A stretch of 32,000 bases of DNA. Origin: Methanopyrus kandleri AV19 (GTDB lineage Archaea > JAADCQ01 > Methanopyri > Methanopyrales > Methanopyraceae). The notes beneath the pieces are model-generated. The model was not told where the DNA came from, did no database searches, and was given only the letters and a program-made list of their open reading frames with translations. Within the stretch, counting starts at the first letter, position 1; the number at the start of each line of letters is the position of its first letter. Both the position numbers and the translations under genes were made by a program. The stretch spans positions 1,080,001-1,112,000 of the forward strand of contig NC_003551.1 in NCBI RefSeq assembly GCF_000007185.1, read 5' to 3'. Below, one piece after another: positions 2,635-25,320 of this stretch.

Positions 2635-4164
2635 CTAGCGACAGAACGGGTGTGACGGGCCCTCCCTGGAGCAGCGATGTCTCCGACCGAAGGGATTACG
2701 TCGCTTCCACCAGAGTGGGGCAGGCAGCACCGGCAGCCCACGTTTCGATTTCTGCTTTTTCAGCCCCTGAAACTCCCGTTCGAGTGACTCGAGCCGACGT
2801 TCGAGATCCTGTTGTCTCCGCGAGAGGTCCTCGAGACCCTGTTCCAGCCGATTGATCTCCCGCTCGAGCGATTCGACCCGACTCTGCTGTACCATCGAAC
2901 CCACCAGCTCGGCGTGCAGTGTCAGTATCTCCCGGTAGACAGTGCTGAGGGCTTTCCGCTCTTCGAGGAGGGACCAACGGGCCGAGCTCGGGTCCCAGTA
3001 CTCCAGAACGTTCTCGAGAAGTGCTTCGTTCCAAACCCGCTCCACGGCACGGTACAGGTCCTTTCGGATGGAATCATCGATGACACCGTTCACGGTGAGG
3101 TCCCAGAGGGCGGAGTCTAAGGCCCGCCACCGTGACATCGTGTCCAGCCACTCCCGCACGATCTTCGACTTGTCCGGGTACAGGTCGATGAGCTCCCACC
3201 AATGGTGGTAATCGGCCGCGTGTAAGATGCTGGAGTAATCGGGCTCCGGTAGTGCGACGAGCCCCAGATTGGTTCCCCCTGAGGATATCATGTTAACTAC
3301 CTCGCGAGGGTCGCTGAGTTCGAACGTTACCGTGACTCCCTGGTACTCGAAGTCGAAGGATCCATTCCCGACCTCCGAAAGGAAGTTCTCGAACTCCTGC
3401 CGGACGTCGGCGTCCGCGAGTTCCCATGGATGGATGAGTACCCATGGGGCAAGGTGTACGTCGCCGGTGACGTTTATGACACCGCTATCTATGAGGTTTC
3501 TCACGGCGTTCTGGAGGAGCTCTCGAACCGTCGTCCCACGATCCTCGGCCGCTTGCACCAGGTCCGAGACGTAGCTCAAGGCGGGTATGTAGTACAGTCG
3601 GTCCCCACGGACGTTGAAATACCCCACTAGCATATGTCTGGCTATGGGATCCAGTCGGTCCCATGTTGGATCGTAATCGGGATTGATCGCCGTGATGTCG
3701 GTGCCACAGACTATCACCCGCACCCCGAGTTTATCGCAGGCGTACAGGGTGTTGGCGTCGAACACCCACGAAGGGACGGATAGGACCTGGGCGACGTTGC
3801 TCCCCACTCGGTCCCTGAGGAATTGCAGGTTGAACTCGAGCTCCCAGTACTGAAGGCTGAGGGGAAGACCCCCTAAGGCGTGGGATGTCGAGTGTAGTCC
3901 GACCAGACTGATCGTGCCCCGCTCGGCGTACTCTCGGATCAAGTCCGTGATACCCGGCGCCGTCTCCTCACAGACGTTGTAGTGGAATACTGCGACTTTG
4001 ATGCCACGCTCTTCGCACCATGAGAGGAACTCCTTCAGTGCGGCGACGTGGTCCTGGGACCACGCGTCACTATCGAGGTAGGGGACTACGTGCACGTATA
4101 CGGTCGCGGCGGAAGCCGAAGGTGGCAGCGGCAGGATACCAATCAACACCAACGAAAGTAGCAC
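2635..4164 (-). CDS. secreted protein with NodB-like (polysaccharide deacetylase / glycoside-hydrolase-deacetylase fold) N-terminal region and C-terminal coiled coil
   Basis: N-terminal signal-like segment MLLSLVLIGILPLPPSASA. About 330 aa are paralogous to ORF 8392-10149 (VHVVPYLDSDAWSQDHVAALKEFLSWCEERGIKVAVFHY vs VHITVYNDSDAYSEDQVKAYEDFLTWCEENGVKVAVFHY; VLIHPWEL vs VLIHPWQL). DSD and HSTSH motifs resemble the NodB Asp plus His-His site. Heptad-like ESLEREINRLEQGLEDLSRRQQDLERRLESLEREF. Tail GLPVLPAPLWWKRR. Confidence 0.75.
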   Translation of the reverse strand: MLLSLVLIGILPLPPSASAATVYVHVVPYLDSDAWSQDHVAALKEFLSWCEERGIKVAVFHYNVCEETAPGITDLIREYAERGTISLVGLHSTSHALGGLPLSLQYWELEFNLQFLRDRVGSNVAQVLSVPSWVFDANTLYACDKLGVRVIVCGTDITAINPDYDPTWDRLDPIARHMLVGYFNVRGDRLYYIPALSYVSDLVQAAEDRGTTVRELLQNAVRNLIDSGVINVTGDVHLAPWVLIHPWELADADVRQEFENFLSEVGNGSFDFEYQGVTVTFELSDPREVVNMISSGGTNLGLVALPEPDYSSILHAADYHHWWELIDLYPDKSKIVREWLDTMSRWRALDSALWDLTVNGVIDDSIRKDLYRAVERVWNEALLENVLEYWDPSSARWSLLEERKALSTVYREILTLHAELVGSMVQQSRVESLEREINRLEQGLEDLSRRQQDLERRLESLEREFQGLKKQKSKRGLPVLPAPLWWKRRNPFGRRHRCSREGPSHPFCR

Positions 4165-4292
4165 CGCCGGACCCCCGGTGCATATCCCGGGCTTGGAGTT
4201 AGCATATGTGGTCTAAAGTTGGGTTCTATGTAGATTTTGTGGGGTTATAGGTTCTGTGATGTTTCCCCAAACCGCACAACTCACCGTTCGAG

Positions 4293-4305
4293 TTTAAAAA
4301 GTATG
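4293..4305 (-). promoter_or_regulatory. TATA-like box upstream of the 2635-4164 gene
   Basis: The minus strand reads CATACTTTTTAAACTCG inside one of the few AT-rich islands, about 130 nt upstream of the start at 4164. The same AAGTAT/TTTAAA core recurs at other putative promoters (23763-23785, 24125-24134, 26745-26754). Confidence 0.35.
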
Positions 4306-4373
4306 GAGGCGTTGGGGGATCGCGGCGGCCTCTTCACGCCCTACGTGACGGGAGGCCCGGACCACGCGAGGTT

Positions 4374-4985
4374 TCACCCACACCTGCGTACGCACGACAC
4401 CAGCGCAGGCAGCAGGAAAGCCGGTCGAAACCTCCGATCCCAGTCGTGTGCGGCCCAGTCAGTGTACTCGTAGTAAGTCGTACCCTCGATCCAGCGTACG
4501 CTCACGATCGACTCGCGGGCGGTTTCGAAGGGGATTTCGAGGACGACGGGGCCCCTGTACCGGCGGATCCGGACGCACCCACCGAGGAGTACGTGCGCGC
4601 CCTCGGGTAGGGGGCCGCCCTCCAGGAAGGTCGAGCCCTCGGTTACCGGAATTCCCTCCGGATCGGGTACCAACAGGAGTACTTCCGCGGACTTCGGGCA
4701 CTGAACGTGGAGGAGCCCTCCGCTCCACCGAACTCGAACATCGTCGAGCCGTCGGAGGGATCCGAAGCGGGTACTGGTTTCCTCCATCGTCTCCCGCCAA
4801 CGATCACCCTCGCGGACGAACACTGCCCCCTCATCCAGTTCGGGCGTGGTGAGGACGACCCTCGTGACGTCCCACTGGGTGCCGACGACCGTGTGCACGT
4901 CTGGGGTGAGGTACATCGAGCCACCGTCGACGAGTCCTGCGACCGGAGAGAGTACGGTCAGGAGGAATGTGAGTAGTTCGTGCAA
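4374..4985 (-). CDS. small secreted hypothetical protein (about 203 aa from TTG 4985; track ORF extends to 5123)
   Basis: The track ORF's first 46 codons are R/S/P-rich. In-frame TTG at 4985 gives MHELLTFLLTVLSPVAGLVDGGS, a signal-like N-terminus. The beta-rich body is followed by the tail RPAFLLPALVSCVRRCG. Antisense ORFs are R/G/P-rich. Confidence 0.5.
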   Translation of the reverse strand: MHELLTFLLTVLSPVAGLVDGGSMYLTPDVHTVVGTQWDVTRVVLTTPELDEGAVFVREGDRWRETMEETSTRFGSLRRLDDVRVRWSGGLLHVQCPKSAEVLLLVPDPEGIPVTEGSTFLEGGPLPEGAHVLLGGCVRIRRYRGPVVLEIPFETARESIVSVRWIEGTTYYEYTDWAAHDWDRRFRPAFLLPALVSCVRRCG

Positions 4986-5322
4986 TTCGACCCTTCCCTT
5001 CACCGGATTCCAGGAGTTGGTGGATCGGGATCGTACCCACCGGGCTTTCTCACGCGCTCTCGACGGTTCACACGGGTTCCTGGCGGTCGAATTCGGAACG
5101 CGTTCGTCGACATCCATCGGCATCGGATCTCGGGAACGTCCCTCGAGACCGGTCGTAACGGCAGCTCGGAGATCGAGGATGACAACGGGTTCGACCCTCG
5201 GGACGTGCGGGTTACCGTGGGTGTAACCGGTGGGATCTACGTCTGCGATGCGAAGGACGGTCCGACAGTCCGCATGCCCTGTCCGAAAGGTTACGATCCT
5301 TGTAACATTTCCTGGAAAGAAG

Positions 5323-6447
5323 TCAGGGCGAGAGTCCTTTGCGGCATAGTAACAGGCCGGTCGTGGCCGCTAGCACCGCCAGGATCGGTAGCAGCGGTGG
5401 TGTTCCGGTGGAGTGCTCCCCGACGCACACGCCGGAGGTTCCCGTCCTTACCGGCCTTCCGGTAGCTCCGCCGACCGAACTCCCGGCCGATACACGCGTC
5501 GTTGGACCTCCCTTGACCGCGGCGAAGTGGGCCTCGATGGTCTCGGAGGGTGTCGACTCGGTGATTGTCGTGATTGTCGGCGTCTCTTCACCGCCGGAGG
5601 GTGATTCGATGACCTCCTGTTGGGTTTCCCGTTGAGCCTCGGACGTTTCCTGCGGGGACCCAGGGTTCACCGACTGAACCGTCGATCCTGTGGGTCCGGG
5701 TGAGAAGGTCCCCTCCGCGTGCGAGGTCAGGTACTGGGTCGTCAGGTACGCGATCAGCGGCAGTGCCAGCACGGCCGTCGGTAGTAACTTCGGCAGTAGT
5801 TCGGTCAGCGACGATCCCGACTCAGTGGGCCACAGCGCATCCCAGATCTTGAGCTGAGCGTCCCATGAGAAGTACCTTGTCCACTCGACGTTGGAGTCCA
5901 GGATCCGTACCGCTCGGCGGACAGTGGTCGGCGTTATCCTGACGTACTTGACCCACTCCGGCTCGCACACTCCCGTCGCCAGGACCTGCTCGATCTTGTC
6001 CGGCTTCACCGCGATCGCGAGCTTGGACGATAGTCCCTCCCAGGTGGGCACCACGAGGGACTCCGGGCCGTTCCATCCCGGCACGGCCGATCCGGGACTC
6101 AGGCAGTATCCGATGGTGTCGACGGGTCGCGTGACCGTCAGCGTGTCGCCCTCTACTCGGACACCGTCCTTCGGGAGCGGTACCAGCAGTGGCTGCTCCT
6201 CGTAGGTCTCGCCGCTCGATTTCGCGTCCCCCTCGGTGATCATCACTACGTACACGGCGTGCTCACCCACGACCACCGGATGTTCTTTCAGGTCCAGCGT
6301 CGCACCTTCCTCTGCCACGACGTGGACCCTGAGGTTCTCGAGCATCTCCTCGGGAGTAGCGCCGTTGGTGGTCGCTTTGCCCGTGATGGCGCTTGCCGAG
6401 TTCGCGACCATCGCAACTGCTACTATCGCCATCACGAGGACTCGCAT
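5323..6447 (-). CDS. secreted, C-terminally anchored surface protein (374 aa)
   Basis: Signal-like MRVLVMAIVAVAMVANSASA. Globular region, then a hydrophobic segment LLPKLLPTAVLALPLIAYL, then a T/S/E/P-rich linker (PQETSEAQRETQQEVIESPSGGEETPTITTITESTPSET). C-terminal tail GTPPLLPILAVLAATTGLLLCRKG. Confidence 0.7.
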   Translation of the reverse strand: MRVLVMAIVAVAMVANSASAITGKATTNGATPEEMLENLRVHVVAEEGATLDLKEHPVVVGEHAVYVVMITEGDAKSSGETYEEQPLLVPLPKDGVRVEGDTLTVTRPVDTIGYCLSPGSAVPGWNGPESLVVPTWEGLSSKLAIAVKPDKIEQVLATGVCEPEWVKYVRITPTTVRRAVRILDSNVEWTRYFSWDAQLKIWDALWPTESGSSLTELLPKLLPTAVLALPLIAYLTTQYLTSHAEGTFSPGPTGSTVQSVNPGSPQETSEAQRETQQEVIESPSGGEETPTITTITESTPSETIEAHFAAVKGGPTTRVSAGSSVGGATGRPVRTGTSGVCVGEHSTGTPPLLPILAVLAATTGLLLCRKGLSP

Positions 6448-6529
6448 TCCGGGTTTTCACCCCCTCCGTCGCCGTCCGGCTCGACGCCTCCATCGGGTCG
6501 AAAGAAGTCGGAGACGTGAAGGAGAAGCG

Positions 6530-8467
6530 TTAGCGGCGACGACGGCGTACGATCGGGATCACCGGTAAGATCGGAGCGTGACCGGTACCCTCCCGTAAGT
6601 GCGGCTTCTCCGCGCCGCCCAAGATCACGAATTTCTTGGGAAACAGCCGCCCCCGCTCGTCCACGGTCAGGTACACCTTCCTACCGTTCTGCAACGTGAC
6701 CTCGAGGGTGGTCGGGGTCACACGGTTCACGGACTTGACATTGAGGGGGAGCTTCACGGTACGGACGGTCCCGTCCTCGGTAGTCACTCGGAGGGTTCCG
6801 TCCTCGAACACGTCGATCAGGAACGACCTCCCGGCCGTGGTCAGTTCTACGGTGGCTATCCGGGCTTCCATTTCGGCCGACGTCGGTCGGCCCCGCTGTA
6901 GGGCGCTTTGTGTTTCCTCCAACCGTTCCCGTTCCTCGCTTCTCCCTCCGGTCCTTCCTCCGCTCCCCTTCTCCTCCACCACGTTCTCCTCAGCTCTCCC
7001 CTGGAGCTTCTCGGGCGGGAATACCCGGTCAGACGATGATGACTCGGTAGTGGGTTGGGTCGTCGGTCTACCCTCACGCTGCTCCTGGAGCCGGTTCGCC
7101 GACCGGATCGTCTGACCCCGCTGCTCCTCGGTAGCGGATCGCGCGCCGGACTGGGTATGGAATTCGCCCTCGGTCCTACCCTCCGCGCTCGACTGCGGGG
7201 AGTGGGGTTGATACCGTGGGAGCTTGACGGTCACGTCCGTCCCGGCGGTCGCGCTGAACGACGTGCCGGTGTCCGCATCCCGACAGTGTACGGTCACGAG
7301 AACCCTGTACGTGCCCTCTCGGCCCACCTCGAACGTTACCGACCCGCTCGGATCCGCGAGTGTTTTCCTGCCTACCACGTTACCACTCTCGTCGCAGAGG
7401 AAGATTTCCACACTGTCAACCTCGGCGCGGTCGACGTTCACGCGGTACTCGACACTCAGCGTCGCGCTTTCCGGCGTGGGTCGTGCGTCCACGTCCACCC
7501 TGACACTCGGTAAGACAACTGCTACCGCATCGGTGGTTAGCTTCGACACAACGGATTCCGTCACCGAGTCTATTGAACACTGTAGTGTCATGACGGCGTA
7601 GTACGAGCCACTTCTAGTTACCGTGAACGTTACTGAACCCGTCTTAGGCGGATTATTGACGACTTTCCGATCCATGAGATTGCCGTTCTCATCGTAGAGT
7701 GCTATCTCAAGTAGCTCCGGAGTGCAAGCTGTTGTATTTATCTCGTAGTAGGCACTCAGTACCGCGTTCTTAGGCGTCTTCTTAACAAGAGATAACGCAC
7801 CGTTCACACTCGCCCGCGGTATCTGAACGGTCACGCCGGTTTCGGTAGTGGTGCTGAACTGTGTACCGGTGTCGGCGTCCCGGCAACGTGCGGTTATAAG
7901 GACCTTATACGTACCGTCTTTATCCACATCGAACGTTACCGAGCCGCTCAGGTCCGAGACTTCCTTCTTCCCTACCACATAGCCATCCTCGTCGTACAGG
8001 ACCACCTCGACACCGTCCACCTCAGCGTGACTGGCGTCAACGTCGTAATCCACCCTCAACGTCGCGCCTTCCGGTCCGGGTTGCACGTCCGTGCTTGCCC
8101 GTATACGAACGCTCGGCAGTACGATCTCCATCACATCGGTGCTCAGCTCCGAGGCCACGGATTCGGTCGTCAGACCGCTCGAGCACTGCAGTACTAGGAC
8201 GGCGCGGTACGAGCCACTTCCCGTCACCTTGAACCTCACCGAGCCGGTCTCGGGCGGATCCTCGATCGTCTCCTGGCTCACGATCTCACCACTCTGATCG
8301 TAGAGGGTGATCACGAGCCGTTCCGGAGTGCAGGCTACCGTGTGCGTCTCGTACCGGACCTCCAGTGTGGCGCCTTCCGGAGTCTTCTCGATTAGGGATA
8401 GCGTGCCGCTGACACTCGCTCGCGGTACCGGATCGGAAGGCTCAGGTCGATCTGGAATTGGTCCCAT
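6530..8467 (-). CDS. surface protein with four beta-sandwich (Ig-like) modules, polar linker and C-terminal tail (645 aa); probably continuous with the upstream ORF
   Basis: aa 15-216 and 217-418 are a tandem duplication (PRASVSGTLSLIEKTPEGATLEVRYETHTVACTPE... vs PRASVNGALSLVKKTPKNAVLSAYYEINTTACTPE...). No signal peptide at its own N-terminus. R/E/Q/S/T-rich linker. Tail HAPILPVIPIVRRRRR. Confidence 0.75.
   Translation of the reverse strand: MGPIPDRPEPSDPVPRASVSGTLSLIEKTPEGATLEVRYETHTVACTPERLVITLYDQSGEIVSQETIEDPPETGSVRFKVTGSGSYRAVLVLQCSSGLTTESVASELSTDVMEIVLPSVRIRASTDVQPGPEGATLRVDYDVDASHAEVDGVEVVLYDEDGYVVGKKEVSDLSGSVTFDVDKDGTYKVLITARCRDADTGTQFSTTTETGVTVQIPRASVNGALSLVKKTPKNAVLSAYYEINTTACTPELLEIALYDENGNLMDRKVVNNPPKTGSVTFTVTRSGSYYAVMTLQCSIDSVTESVVSKLTTDAVAVVLPSVRVDVDARPTPESATLSVEYRVNVDRAEVDSVEIFLCDESGNVVGRKTLADPSGSVTFEVGREGTYRVLVTVHCRDADTGTSFSATAGTDVTVKLPRYQPHSPQSSAEGRTEGEFHTQSGARSATEEQRGQTIRSANRLQEQREGRPTTQPTTESSSSDRVFPPEKLQGRAEENVVEEKGSGGRTGGRSEERERLEETQSALQRGRPTSAEMEARIATVELTTAGRSFLIDVFEDGTLRVTTEDGTVRTVKLPLNVKSVNRVTPTTLEVTLQNGRKVYLTVDERGRLFPKKFVILGGAEKPHLREGTGHAPILPVIPIVRRRRR
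7214..8425. repeat. intragenic tandem duplication, 2 x 606 bp (2 x 202 codons)
   Basis: PRASV(S/N)G recurs at aa 15 and aa 217 of ORF 6530-8467, and module-by-module similarity runs through both copies (copy 1 = 7820-8425, copy 2 = 7214-7819). Each copy holds an A module (ACTPE...LQCS) and a B module (L(Y/C)DE(D/S)G..V(V)G(K/R)K...SGSVTF(D/E)V...GTY(K/R)VL(I/V)T..CRDADTGT). Confidence 0.85.
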
Positions 8468-10149
8468 AGTCGTCCCTGCACGTTTCCACTCAACACAACG
8501 TACACGGTGTCCGCTCGTCGGTCCTTCGGGAGGCTGATCGTGACACCGCTCGCGAGCTCGTCCAGCGTGAACGGGACCTCCGCGATCACATCCCCATTCT
8601 CGTCCTCGACGACGATCCTCCCGCCGGTGATATCGCTCAACCCGACGGAGGTGAACTCACCTCTCACCACGAGATCCGTCGGGTCGGCGCGGTCCAGCGT
8701 CACTTTCCCACGTACGACCCCGGGGGATGGACACCACCAGTTCCGGTCCAGGAACACGGCGGCTATCCCACCGTCGGAGTACTGGAACACCAGGACCCTG
8801 TGGTTATCATCCGCCGAAGTCGTGAGGAGCGAAGCCGAACCGTCGAGGTAGTCGCGTAGCAGCTCCAGTTCGGCCTTCCAGACCTCCAGGTACTGGATGA
8901 TCCCCTCGCTCTCGCACATGCAGCTCAGCTGAGCCTCGTTGACGGTCCTGAGCACGACGTCACGGACCAGCGGGTCCAGCTCGGTTCTCTTCAGCCTTTG
9001 CAGCCGCGGAGCGATCGACTTCAGTACGTCCATACCTTCCCGCCATAGTTTCACGATCTCCGGGTATTTTTTCTCCAACTCCTCCACCGTGCGCAGATCA
9101 CTCGCGTGCACCATGCTAGTCCAGTCTAAGTCGCTGATCGTGACATCGGGATGCCCGTAGGCGTCCGGGTTTTCCGCGATTTCACGCACTAGCTCGAGGC
9201 ACTCGGAAGGTCTTTCCAGCTCGAAATGCACTGGGATTACGCCGTACAAGGTGAAGTCGAGGCTCCCGCTCTTAACCCATCTGATGAACTCCTCGATCAG
9301 ATCGAGGCCGGTCCTGCCCGTGCTTCCCATCTCCTCGACCAGCTGCCACGGGTGGATCAGTACCCACAGTACGAGGTCCGCTTTTCCGTCGTTGTTCCCT
9401 TTGATCGCGCCCACGTTGAGCAACGTCTCAACGGCCCGTCGGAACGCCCCCTTAAGGCTCTCGAGGCCGTAGGGGCCTATGTCCTGCTCAACGTCGTCCA
9501 CGAGCTCTCCGAAATCGATCACCGGGCAGACGTACACCACGTCTCCATCGATGTCCAACTTCTTGACGATGAGCACGTCCGCGAGGTAGTCCATATCTTC
9601 GCCCTGCCACGAGACTACTTTCTCCGGGTTGAACTCCCAAGTCCGGTACCCGGAAACGATCCACTTGATCCCGAGTTCGCGGCAGACGTGCACGAAGTTC
9701 TCGTCGATGACCCACTCGATGGACGGTGAGACCACGTCCTTACGGAGGCCCGGCTCTAGGTTCTGTTCTTTGAAGAACTCCCACGAGTACTCGATCTGCA
9801 ATCGCTCGATCTCTGGTGGGAGTCCGGCAATAGAGTGAGCGGTACCGTGGGATCCGACGAATTCGACGGATTTGCCCAGGTGTTCCCGGATTACGGCCGT
9901 GATCCCGGGCGCTTCGAACTCACATTCCGGATAGTGAAACACCGCCACCTTCACGCCGTTCTCCTCACACCAAGTCAGGAAATCCTCGTAAGCCTTGACT
10001 TGATCCTCACTGTACGCGTCGCTATCGTTGTACACCGTAATATGAACTGTAATTGACTGAGGTAAGGTCATTGTTAACAAAGCTGCATGAGTTGGAGCTG
10101 CTAATGTTAACAGGAGAGCCACAAGAACGACAATGGAAGATCGCGTCAT
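8392..10149 (-). CDS. secreted NodB-like domain protein, paralogue of 2635-4164, ending in a beta-sandwich module (585 aa)
   Basis: Signal-like MTRSSIVVLVALLLTLAAPTHA. Paralogy to the 509-aa ORF, with DSD and HGTAH motifs. The C-terminal RIVVEDENGDVIAEVPFTLDELASGVTISLPKDRRADTVYVVLSG resembles the B modules of the downstream ORF. It overlaps that ORF by 76 nt in another frame. Confidence 0.8.
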   Translation of the reverse strand: MTRSSIVVLVALLLTLAAPTHAALLTMTLPQSITVHITVYNDSDAYSEDQVKAYEDFLTWCEENGVKVAVFHYPECEFEAPGITAVIREHLGKSVEFVGSHGTAHSIAGLPPEIERLQIEYSWEFFKEQNLEPGLRKDVVSPSIEWVIDENFVHVCRELGIKWIVSGYRTWEFNPEKVVSWQGEDMDYLADVLIVKKLDIDGDVVYVCPVIDFGELVDDVEQDIGPYGLESLKGAFRRAVETLLNVGAIKGNNDGKADLVLWVLIHPWQLVEEMGSTGRTGLDLIEEFIRWVKSGSLDFTLYGVIPVHFELERPSECLELVREIAENPDAYGHPDVTISDLDWTSMVHASDLRTVEELEKKYPEIVKLWREGMDVLKSIAPRLQRLKRTELDPLVRDVVLRTVNEAQLSCMCESEGIIQYLEVWKAELELLRDYLDGSASLLTTSADDNHRVLVFQYSDGGIAAVFLDRNWWCPSPGVVRGKVTLDRADPTDLVVRGEFTSVGLSDITGGRIVVEDENGDVIAEVPFTLDELASGVTISLPKDRRADTVYVVLSGNVQGRLWDQFQIDLSLPIRYRERVSAARYP

Positions 10150-17834: not shown

Positions 17835-18202
17835 CGTAGCCCCCCGAAACCGCCGCGTCGATCCTGATAAGGCCCCCGGCTCTGGGCCGACCGAACACGA
17901 CTTACGGTACTCAAAAGCCTCTCCTTTTCAAGCCGGAGGACGGTGCGGAGGGACACCCACCGAGCGGGTCGAAGACGTGTGGAGTCCGGGCCGATCCCGA
18001 GGACGTGATCCGAACCGGTCGTCCCGGACCCTCGTCCTTCATGTTATCTCCGTCAAGTTACGTTACGGACCGCCCGGAACTCGGGATTGGCACCCCCGAC
18101 GGCCCGCCGGGATCGACCGGGCGCGTCCCCGTAACTTTTTCGTGCTCTAAAGTCGTGGTCGGCCGTACCGGTTACTACGGGGGTTACGGCACCGAGTTGA
18201 GG

Positions 18203-19186
18203 ATGATCGCGATCTACGACTTAGGGTGGTTCTCCCGGGCCCTGCTCGCGGATGCGACGGTCGCGGTGATCGGCCTGACGATCGTCGCGACACTCATCGC
18301 TTACCTCGGGCTAGGTGGACCGCTCCGACCGTCGCTCGCCGTCGGGGCGGCCGCCGGGGCCCTTGGGCTCGTGATCTACTGGTACGGCACGCTCCTGGCC
18401 TCTTCATGCCGGATACGCGGCGTCGGCCGCACGGACTGGGGCGTGGTCGTGGGAGTGAAGTGCCGGACATCGTCCGTGGCCGTGGTCGGGATCTTGGGAG
18501 AGGGTGAAATCGGTGTCGAGAGGGGCCGGATCGTGAAGCGTGAGACCCAGTACGGTCTCTGCCTGTACAAGCTCGTGTTGCCCCGCGGTGAGGGCCTCCT
18601 CTGGGTGTACGGTCAACCCGAGGGGCTGGTGGTGGCCACCGTCGGGAACGGGGTCGCGGTGTTCTCCGACGACCTTCCCCGGGTCCTCTACTTGGGTGTG
18701 ATCGCCACCGGTAGCCTGCTGGAGTGGTTCCTGGACGTCGTCATGCCGTTCTCGACCCTGGCCGACCTCGCGATGGAACCGGCCTGGAGGATCGTGAGGG
18801 AGTCGAGCTCGATCAGCTGCGCCCCGTCGTGGGACAGGCTCGCGCGGGAGGTCGCGGTGGATCCGGGGATGACGGCCCGCGCCCTCGAGGGTAGGGTCGC
18901 ACTGGTCCACCGCGACGTCGCGCTGTTCTTCCTCTCGGTGCTCATCGTCGTACTGGGAGTACCCGTGGCGCTGTCGGTGTTGTCGGGATACGGCCCGGTC
19001 CTATACGAGCTGATCGAGCCGTTGGTGGCCGTCCTGCAAGGCGTCTGCGGGGGAACGTTCCCCGTCCTGATCTGCACGCTCCTCGCCGCGCTGCTCGTGG
19101 GTTACGCGGTCCTCCTACTGACGTCCCCGCTGCTCCTGACGTACGTCGGGTTCGTGACCCGGCTGACCGCGGACCGTCACGCGTGA
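18203..19186 (+). CDS. polytopic membrane protein, unknown function (327 aa from ATG 18203; track ORF starts at 18005)
   Basis: The first 66 codons of the track ORF are P/G/S-rich. ATG 18203 (MIAIYDLGWFSRALLADATVAVIGLTIVATLIAYLGLGG) is preceded by the AT-rich AACTTTTTCGTGCTCTAAAG about 50-70 nt upstream. Two N-terminal TM segments, a beta-rich middle, and several C-terminal TM segments. Confidence 0.6.
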   Translation: MIAIYDLGWFSRALLADATVAVIGLTIVATLIAYLGLGGPLRPSLAVGAAAGALGLVIYWYGTLLASSCRIRGVGRTDWGVVVGVKCRTSSVAVVGILGEGEIGVERGRIVKRETQYGLCLYKLVLPRGEGLLWVYGQPEGLVVATVGNGVAVFSDDLPRVLYLGVIATGSLLEWFLDVVMPFSTLADLAMEPAWRIVRESSSISCAPSWDRLAREVAVDPGMTARALEGRVALVHRDVALFFLSVLIVVLGVPVALSVLSGYGPVLYELIEPLVAVLQGVCGGTFPVLICTLLAALLVGYAVLLLTSPLLLTYVGFVTRLTADRHA

Positions 19187-24489: not shown

Positions 24490-25320
24490 TTGTCGTCACT
24501 CCAACCGATTCGGGGGAGACCTTTGAGGCTTCCGGCGATCGCGGCCGGACTGCTGATACTCTTCGCCCAGCCGGCGAGCTGCCTGAAGGTGGCGGTGTTC
24601 GCCGCCGATGACGTGGAACCCACGTGCCTCAAGGCCATCGAGAAGGTACTCCGGGACGCGGGCGTACCATTCGACGAGGTCAAAGGGAAGGACATCGTCG
24701 ACGGGACAATCGTCGAGAGGTACGACGTCCTGATCCTGCCCGGTGGCGCGTACTCCGAGCGCGTCGTGCATCATCCCAGGTTCATCGAGGGGCTGAAGGA
24801 GTTCGCGAGGGCGGGCGGCAAGATCGTGGGGATCTGCGCGGGTGCGATCACGCTGGTCAAGGGTGGGCTGGTCAGGGCGAAGGTGGAGGGAGCGGGTCTC
24901 GGCGTGGGTAAGGTGACGCTGGAGCTCGAGCGCGATCCCCTCACGGAGGGGCTGCCCGACCGCCTCGAGGTCACGTACATCAACGGGCCCGTGATGCGCT
25001 CCCAAGGGGCTAAGGTGGTGGCCCGGTACGCGGGAGGTATCGTGAGTCGCGGGGACGCGATCCTCGTGGACCGCTACGGTAAGGGCGAGGTGATCGCGAT
25101 CGGACCGCACCCGTGTCACGACGAGAGGGGGAACGTGAACACCCAGGGCGCCAAGCTGCTGCTCAACGCCCTGGGCGTGAAGAAGCGGGTCAAATCCGGG
25201 AAGGTCGAGGGTGAGGGTTGGTTCCCGACACCGGTTCCGGTAGCGGCGGTGATCCTGGGACTGGTGGCGGCGCTCGGGGTCCGCGGGCTGATTTCCCGAC
25301 GTGGTACCGGGGTGAAGTAA
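24490..25320 (+). CDS. secreted, C-terminally anchored class-I glutamine-amidotransferase-like (DJ-1/PfpI/BPL_N-like) fold protein (alternative start TTG 24523)
   Basis: Signal-like RLPAIAAGLLILFAQPASC. KVAVFAADD...YDVLILPGGAY...GGKIVGICAGAITL (nucleophile-elbow Cys) ...IAIGPHPCH (His). C-terminal FPTPVPVAAVILGLVAALGVRGLISRR. The antisense 331-aa ORF is R/P-rich. Confidence 0.8.
   Translation: MSSLQPIRGRPLRLPAIAAGLLILFAQPASCLKVAVFAADDVEPTCLKAIEKVLRDAGVPFDEVKGKDIVDGTIVERYDVLILPGGAYSERVVHHPRFIEGLKEFARAGGKIVGICAGAITLVKGGLVRAKVEGAGLGVGKVTLELERDPLTEGLPDRLEVTYINGPVMRSQGAKVVARYAGGIVSRGDAILVDRYGKGEVIAIGPHPCHDERGNVNTQGAKLLLNALGVKKRVKSGKVEGEGWFPTPVPVAAVILGLVAALGVRGLISRRGTGVK

Follow-up and report, generated by a model that had tools for sequence, protein, structure and literature searches.

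Do the predicted surface proteins encoded close together in one region of the Methanopyrus kandleri AV19 chromosome end in a common C-terminal signal and, if so, of what kind? The region (the window: 32,000 nucleotides, NC_003551.1 positions 1,080,001 to 1,112,000; all coordinates below count from its first nucleotide) was singled out because an initial annotation had proposed that five exported proteins share a C-terminal tail, a proline-containing hydrophobic run followed by a basic cluster, that might act as a sorting signal. Translations and coordinates confirmed that all five C-terminal sequences occur in the window as quoted. As one class they do not hold together: two belong to what we call the short class, two are ordinary transmembrane anchors and one is weak. 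The short class appears to be a real, conserved and apparently undescribed C-terminal module, and it is the main subject of what follows.

The short tail and its pattern

The short module consists of a polar linker, a block of exactly ten residues with the pattern Φ-P-Φ-Φ-P-Φ-Φ-P-[P/Φ]-Φ (Φ, hydrophobic residue) and three to five arginines, and it lies at or near the C-terminus. The pattern was defined position by position by aligning 14 tails on their basic cluster. Counted back from that cluster, proline occupies position -9 in 10 of the 14 tails, -6 in 12, -3 in 8 and -2 in 9, while leucine or alanine is found at -10, aliphatic residues at -8, -7, -5, -4 and -1, and polar residues at -11 and beyond. 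The hydrophobic block is exactly ten residues long in 12 of the 14. The arginines (R3-5) follow directly, further extensions are present in some copies, and the whole tag is compact at 13 to 15 residues.

To put a number on chance occurrence, we used a strict regular expression requiring 7 to 16 residues from [AVILFWMPC] with at least two prolines, followed directly by at least three R/K. It was applied to the six-frame open reading frames (ORFs) of at least 50 aa in 162,734 non-redundant bases, which amount to 990 ORFs and 133,484 residues. Eleven matches were obtained and 10 of them lie no more than 20 residues from the end of the ORF (binomial P = 4.4e-7); the loci in this set were selected for carrying the family of a 509-aa protein described below and some of the matches are orthologs, which brings the independent count to about 5-6 families of unrelated proteins. 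Real genes or gene fragments, in our judgment, account for 10 of the 11 matches, and the ORF of the remaining one, in locus L013, is apparently in the wrong frame. The short class exceeds chance expectation.

Searches with the tail by itself were less informative. A tail profile compared with 1.84 billion representative proteins returned a single match, an irrelevant repeat protein (P0015), the motif being too short to reach significance in a database of this size. When the tail alignment was lengthened to 40 aa with an artificial rare-word spacer and used against 5.8 billion proteins, 282 candidates were returned, none with E <= 10. A DNA repeat or mobile element was also considered as the source of the tails, and it was ruled out by codon usage, which differs between copies.

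Proteins that carry the tail

The two short-class tails of the window belong to the 509-aa protein and to the ORF that ends at position 6530 (the 6530 ORF). The features of their genes are as follows.

2635..4164, minus strand: gene for the 509-aa exported enzyme, with signal peptide, barrel domain, 80-residue single helix (stalk) and short tail (from translation, an AlphaFold 2 (AF2) model, Foldseek and homologs P0001-P0011)
4108..4161, minus strand: signal peptide of the 509-aa protein, LLSLVLIGILPLPPSASA (by eye; conserved in homologs)
2698..2739, minus strand: short-class tail of the 509-aa ORF, GLPVLPAPLWWKRR, with prolines at -9, -6 and -4 from the basic cluster
2638..2697, minus strand: variable basic extension of 20 residues after this tail, NPFGRRHRCSREGPSHPFCR; its length is not conserved
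6530..10149, minus strand: ancestral single gene, now ORFs 8392-10149 and 6530-8467 (from paralogy, fused orthologs P0013 and P0014, and Pfam repeats)
6533..6580, minus strand: canonical short-class tail of the 6530 ORF, HAPILPVIPIVRRRRR, at the exact C-terminus
8395..8467, minus strand: overlap of the two ORFs with a 1-nt frameshift; the window reads ATCCGGTACC where P0014 implies ATCCCGGTACC
10084..10149, minus strand: signal peptide of the split gene, MTRSSIVVLVALLLTLAAPTHA (by eye)

The 509-aa protein and its relatives provide the clearest evidence that the tail is conserved. The family (2635-4164 and 8392-10149 in the window) has no match in Pfam or NCBIfam, and it comprises 11 proteins (P0001-P0011) among 5.8 billion clusters. 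A metagenome scan recovered six loci, two of them duplicates and all from Ga02568xx samples, and the family seems to be restricted to Methanopyrus-like archaea. A scan of a genome collection with the enzyme family recovered one locus, in a metagenome-assembled genome (MAG). Identity among the homologs falls to 36-43% and the linkers before the tail cannot be aligned, yet nearly all of these proteins end in the same type of tail (LPVLPIPLWWKRR..., APLLPIVPPIRRRRC, APLVPLIPPLRRRRC, VVVLPAPFRRRRG... and APVVAPFVPPVPRGRG...). At about 40% identity in the enzyme domain, for example, P0008 has SHGAPLLPIVPPIRRRRC and P0007 has SHGAPLVPLIPPLRRRRC where the window protein has GHAPILPVIPIVRRRRR. In the alignment of the homologs P0001-P0004 the elements LPVLP.PL..[KR]RR are kept, while the extension past the tail varies: P0001 ends after NPFGR, and P0002-P0004 have other extensions.

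The AF2 model of the 509-aa protein (mean predicted local distance difference test score, pLDDT, 84.5) consists of a (β/α)-barrel and a helical domain, a single helix at residues 392-472 and a disordered stretch formed by the last 39 residues. Foldseek matched the barrel to the GH57 4-α-glucanotransferase 1k1x (E = 7e-9), to GH38 mannosidases and to CE4-type polysaccharide deacetylases, and the protein is predicted to be an enzyme with a GH57/GH38/CE4-like fold.

The second short tail of the window cannot be counted as an independent case, as had been assumed, since the 6530 ORF corresponds to the 3' half of a split gene that is paralogous to the gene for the 509-aa protein (ORF 8392-10149 is 33% identical to the latter). 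The ancestral gene encoded a signal peptide, an enzyme domain paralogous to the 509-aa protein, Ig-like repeats (Pfam SdrD_B and FlgD_ig-like), a charged linker and the short tail. It was split by a one-base deletion within a C run near 8415-8425, which divides a surface-protein gene of about 1,200 aa, and the same split is present in three independent Logan assemblies. The gene is intact in other Methanopyrus genomes, where the two parts are joined in one frame: P0014 reads ...DLSLPIPVPRASVSGTLSL... and P0013 ends in ...GHVPILPVIPISRRRR. The 6530 ORF has no signal peptide of its own because the frameshift leaves it at 10084-10149. The tail itself has counterparts in P0013 (HVPILPVIPISRRRR) and, in a shifted frame, in Methanopyrus sp. 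SNP6 (CP019436; SPILPIVPIIRRR). The SNP6 ortholog of the split gene is frameshifted as well. Elsewhere in the cluster, the ortholog of the ORF ending at 5323 occurs as two ORFs (204 and 195 aa) in one Methanopyrus sp. genome (L006 7838-9036; L005) and is apparently absent in SNP6. This cluster of surface-protein genes seems to decay or vary fast between strains.

The short tail is also found on proteins with no relation to the 509-aa family. In M. kandleri, a GH114-like protein encoded outside the window, about 8 kb past its start, ends in KKLPVIPIVPPVRRRCLSHG, and its orthologs end in ELPVVPPVVPVRRRYPSHD and RLPVIPIVLSARRRCLSHE. Two metagenomic relatives (L007 and L016) encode a 347-aa GATase1-like protein with the short tails ALPLPALPLPPFPIRRRS and VLPLPALPLPPLPIQRRS, and a 944-aa protein of related metagenomic archaea (L008) ends in PVLVPPVPPLRRRRKR. 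The carriers other than the 509-aa protein are GH114-like, DJ-1/GATase1-like, Ig-repeat 'MSCRAMM'-like or of no assigned family, and the tail occurs on at least four unrelated folds. Wherever the N-terminus of a carrier can be seen, it looks by eye like a signal peptide; this applies to the 509-aa family, the split 585/645 gene and the L007 347-aa, L008 944-aa, L004 581-aa and L004 727-aa proteins, whereas the N-terminus of the GH114-like protein lies outside the loci. The tail is preceded by the 80-residue single helix in the 509-aa protein and by Ser/Gly/Thr-rich or charge-rich linkers in the others. These data suggest that the carriers are extracytoplasmic proteins, several of them predicted carbohydrate-active enzymes, carried by stalks or linkers with the tail at their end. 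The idea of a shared C-terminal module is borne out for the short class: it is position-specific, it is kept while the adjacent linkers diverge, and it recurs on unrelated families of proteins with signal peptides.

Two further arrangements bear on what the tail might do. GATase1-like homologs swap tails, the window protein having a conventional transmembrane tail (25222-25302) and the L007 and L016 proteins a short one; the window protein and the L007 347-aa protein are distant homologs (24% identity over 186 residues, E = 2e-4). The other arrangement is an internal copy of the tail, ALVLPPVVPPVRRRR, near residues 250-290 of a 727-aa ORF in L004 (16186-18369, minus strand). There, RRRR is followed directly by a signal-peptide-like hydrophobic segment (…PPVRRRRWAIVVLFSAVLALPASVHA↓D…), and the junction codon is TGG, one change from TGA. 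This ORF is probably a fusion of two adjacent genes, and no homologs of it were found in the other loci examined.

The remaining three tails of the window belong to the ORFs ending at 4374 and 5323 and to the GATase1-like protein.

4377..4427, minus strand: weak, doubtful tail of the 4374 ORF, RPAFLLPALVSCVRRCG, with a single proline in an 11-residue hydrophobic run
5335..5406, minus strand: long-class tail of the 5323 ORF, which starts with PPLLP and continues with a hydrophobic run of 19 residues and C-RKG
6388..6447, minus strand: signal peptide of the 5323 ORF protein, MRVLVMAIVAVAMVANSASA
24490..25320, plus strand: exported DJ-1/PfpI (GATase1-like) protein with signal peptide and long-class tail (Pfam DJ-1_PfpI, 1.6e-10)
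25222..25302, plus strand: long-class tail of the GATase1-like protein, FPTPVPVAAVILGLVAALGVRGLISRR, with a 17-residue hydrophobic run

The tail of the 4374 ORF is poorly conserved: it is missing from the ortholog in SNP6 and has diverged in that of another Methanopyrus, L006 (LQWALLPSGLVFYIRRCRQ...). The two long tails are retained, that of the 5323 ORF in L006 (VPPILPVLATLAAITGLLLCRRG) and that of the GATase1-like protein in SNP6 (LPTPVPVAAVILGSVAALVVRGLICGS). Judged by their length, these two are C-terminal transmembrane anchors of ordinary length with a proline-rich start, conserved between orthologs.

A cysteine is often located at or just past the basic cluster, although not universally. 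Examples, each read to its stop codon, are ...RRRRC, ...RRRCLSHG, ...CVRRCG, ...LLLCRKGLSP and ...VRGLICGS, and tails of this kind occur in the window (4377-4427 and 5335-5406) and in L005, L006, L007, L014 and L016. This residue could be a candidate juxtamembrane lipidation site on the cytoplasmic side.

In L007 (3401-4291) and L016 (3380-4285), the gene for a polytopic membrane protein with a Gate domain (PF07670) converges on the gene for the 347-aa carrier and overlaps its 3' end; no sortase-like signature was found in the Gate-domain protein of either locus. The window itself has a 393-aa ORF with several hydrophobic segments and no Pfam family match (18005-19186, plus strand). Genes for HMD, MCM, an MFS protein and an aldehyde dehydrogenase are nearby, as suits a methanogen, and the GC content of the window is about 62%. 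The DNA to the right of the window added nothing new.

Proposed membrane retention and its alternatives

We tentatively favor the reading that the short tail is a lineage-specific C-terminal retention signal, of the stop-transfer or anchor type, for Sec-exported surface proteins in Methanopyrus and in uncultured archaea related to it. The chain would be threaded outward through the Sec channel, led by its N-terminal signal peptide, until at its end the ten-residue aliphatic, proline-patterned block would leave the channel and enter the membrane. The three to five arginines would be unable to cross and would remain on the cytoplasmic side, so that the enzyme would stay tethered by its stalk or linker to the outer face of the membrane, beneath the pseudomurein wall. 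On the 5323 and GATase1-like proteins, a proline-started transmembrane tail of ordinary length would serve this purpose by conventional means. Processing of the short tail might occur as well; we infer that the tail may insert with this topology and may later be cleaved.

Several observations argue for an anchoring role with cytoplasmic arginines. The tail is located after a stalk helix or linker, where an anchor would be expected, and GATase1-like homologs carry either a transmembrane or a short tail, a swap that suggests that the two are functionally equivalent. In the L004 fusion, a cytoplasmic arginine cluster appears to be the only topology that works. The strict length and the proline at every third residue point to either an extended, polyproline-II-like conformation or reading by a specific partner. 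In the former case, ten residues at about 3.1 Å each would span about 31 Å (about 3 nm), enough for the hydrophobic core. Insertion of so short a block is consistent with the ability of translocons to integrate hydrophobic segments of 9-10 residues (PMC4796907).

There are also points that weigh against retention. Prolines in the middle of a segment reduce its insertion by the translocon (PMC4796907). A regular transmembrane helix cannot accommodate three to four prolines in ten residues, and the fixed proline positions, which a plain anchor would not need, hint at specific recognition. We know of no established precedent for a membrane-spanning polyproline-II segment. The fusion argument comes from one metagenome-assembled sequence, the best copy in the window (6530) is in a frameshifted gene, and our literature search gave no experiment or proteomic datum on these proteins.

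Specific recognition is at the center of another explanation, which we consider unlikely: that the tail is a true cleaved sorting signal, in which a dedicated membrane peptidase or transpeptidase (archaeosortase-like, sortase-like or new) would read P-x-x-P-x-x-P, cut off the arginine-capped end and couple the protein to lipid or pseudomurein. The fixed proline positions and length on unrelated proteins are what such an enzyme would call for, a single genome region can contain several carriers, as in M. kandleri, where at least three occur in about 20 kb, and the long tails begin with P-x-x-P or P-x-x-x-P and continue with the full layout of motif, transmembrane segment and basic end. ArtA substrates offer a precedent for an internal copy that arose through gene fusion (PMC6098224). 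In the short class, however, the helix found in every described sortase, exosortase, archaeosortase and rhombosortase signal is missing, no named CTERM model matches, and extensions of variable length, up to about 35 residues past the arginine cluster, are untypical of such signals. Methanopyrus has a pseudomurein wall and thus a structure available for protein linkage; on the enzyme side, a scan of ORFs from the window and related loci (about 163 kb) turned up no gene resembling those for archaeosortases, sortases or rhombosortases, and none of the polytopic membrane proteins beside carriers (Gate-domain, NapH-like, DUF4234-like and MFS) is sortase-like.

If no enzyme reads the tail, a binding partner might. 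An external docking peptide, in which a rigid proline-patterned rod, together with a patch of arginines, would attach to an acidic wall polymer, the S-layer or a partner protein in the manner of the PxxP/Arg ligands of SH3-like domains, would accommodate a block that is too short and too proline-rich for a helix, as well as the AF2 prediction that the tail is disordered and not bound to its own protein. The PxxPxxP periodicity followed by arginine resembles polyproline-II ligands. We nevertheless regard this as quite improbable: the non-proline positions are all strongly aliphatic and would suit lipid better than a soluble groove, the tail swaps with true transmembrane tails on homologs, the internal copy in L004 is followed by a membrane segment, and the spacing differs from the canonical PxxPxR of class I or II SH3 ligands. 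Least probable by far, in our view, is that the tails have no common function and that their likeness stems from GC-rich coding (codons for Pro, Arg, Val and Leu), paralog ancestry and ordinary anchors. In its favor, the GC content of the genome is about 62%, and of the five tails first reported two are on paralogs, two are ordinary transmembrane anchors and one is weak; the tail profile also lacked statistical power against 1.8 billion proteins. Against it, the pattern is almost absent from ORFs in the wrong frame of this GC-rich DNA, and matches cluster at the ends of real genes; the tail, unlike the neighboring linker, survives a sequence divergence of about 60%; it is found on at least four folds that are unrelated; and its codons differ between copies.

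Retention and enzymatic reading could each make the tail a new type of surface-protein signal restricted to Methanopyrus-like archaea, one that works without a transmembrane helix either as a non-helical, polyproline-II-like membrane-spanning anchor or as an enzyme-read tag for coupling to lipid or pseudomurein. We hold this to be possible, if somewhat doubtful. In the enzyme-read case it would be the first system for protein sorting to be described in an archaeon with a pseudomurein wall and would bear on how such archaea keep enzymes at their surface. If, instead, a ten-residue proline-rich segment holds a protein in the membrane at about 100 °C, current rules for what makes a membrane anchor would be extended. 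A tag that is this sharply defined would provide a handle for listing the surface proteome of these hyperthermophiles and would open a hunt for the machinery by phylogenetic profiling. It is also a possible portable surface-display signal for thermophilic hosts.

Comparison with known C-terminal signals

The signals of sortases, exosortases and archaeosortases are tripartite, with a transmembrane helix between the motif and the basic end (PMC6098224), and the initial annotation had likened the window tails to this layout. The likeness extends to the signature and the basic cluster but not to the helix, which the ten-residue block of the short class does not provide. Carriers have the signal peptide and basic cluster of archaeosortase substrates and a signature, P(-9), P(-6) and P(-3/-2), that is unlike that of every named class, and a helix of about 17-25 residues is present in the long tails only (5323, GATase1-like and the L004 581-aa ORF). 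The further remark, that the motif was not recognized as any named class, is supported: neither whole proteins nor isolated tails gave a sorting-domain match in NCBIfam release 20 or Pfam at E <= 10, and the CTERM hidden Markov models (HMMs; PGF-, PEF-, PIP-, VPXXXP-, CGP-, PEP-CTERM and others) matched neither carriers nor isolated tails. The sole near-match was sub-threshold, between one L004 long tail and MYXO-CTERM / GC_trans_RRR (TIGR03382; E = 0.3, 11.8 bits against a cut-off of 15.85). No paper tying Methanopyrus to archaeosortase substrates, to such a tail or to any sorting system was found in the literature searched.

Among described systems, PGF-CTERM with archaeosortase A (and likewise PEF-, VPXXXP-, PIP- and CGP-CTERM) resembles the short tail in being C-terminal on Sec-exported archaeal surface proteins, in its proline signature, hydrophobic part and basic end, in having several carriers per genome and in often following a low-complexity linker. 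The PGF-CTERM type has a full helix of about 17-25 residues after the signature, whereas the short tail has ten hydrophobic residues in total, three to four of them proline. MYXO-CTERM (TIGR03382) and PEP-CTERM share with it a hydrophobic stretch and then RRR at the C-terminus of exported proteins; their signature residues (Cys-Gly or PEP) are missing from the tails studied here. The LPXTG/sortase system is similar in the L-P start of many copies (LPVIP, LPVLP, LPVVP), in the basic end and in a peptide-cross-linked wall, which in this host is pseudomurein. In contrast, the spacing from motif to basic residues is about 20-30 in LPXTG signals and a fixed 9-10 in the short tail, none of the copies has T-G or a transmembrane segment, and no PF04203 sortase was present in the scanned ORFs.

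Two further systems are membrane segments. Short poly-Leu segments of 9-10 residues (cited in PMC4796907) are integrated by the translocon and, like the short tail, have about ten hydrophobic residues with flanking charges; they differ in being Leu-only helices, and a central proline lowers their insertion (PMC4796907). The plain anchor of the Sulfolobus SlaB type (a coiled-coil stalk with a transmembrane segment) has the same order of parts: signal peptide, ectodomain, stalk, hydrophobic segment and positive charges inside. In an ordinary anchor of this kind, positive charges come after a helix of at least about 15 residues, and the 5323 tail (19 aa) and the GATase1-like tail (17 aa) fit it fully. 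The short class, with ten residues and three to four prolines, differs from it in having half the hydrophobic length and a conserved proline pattern.

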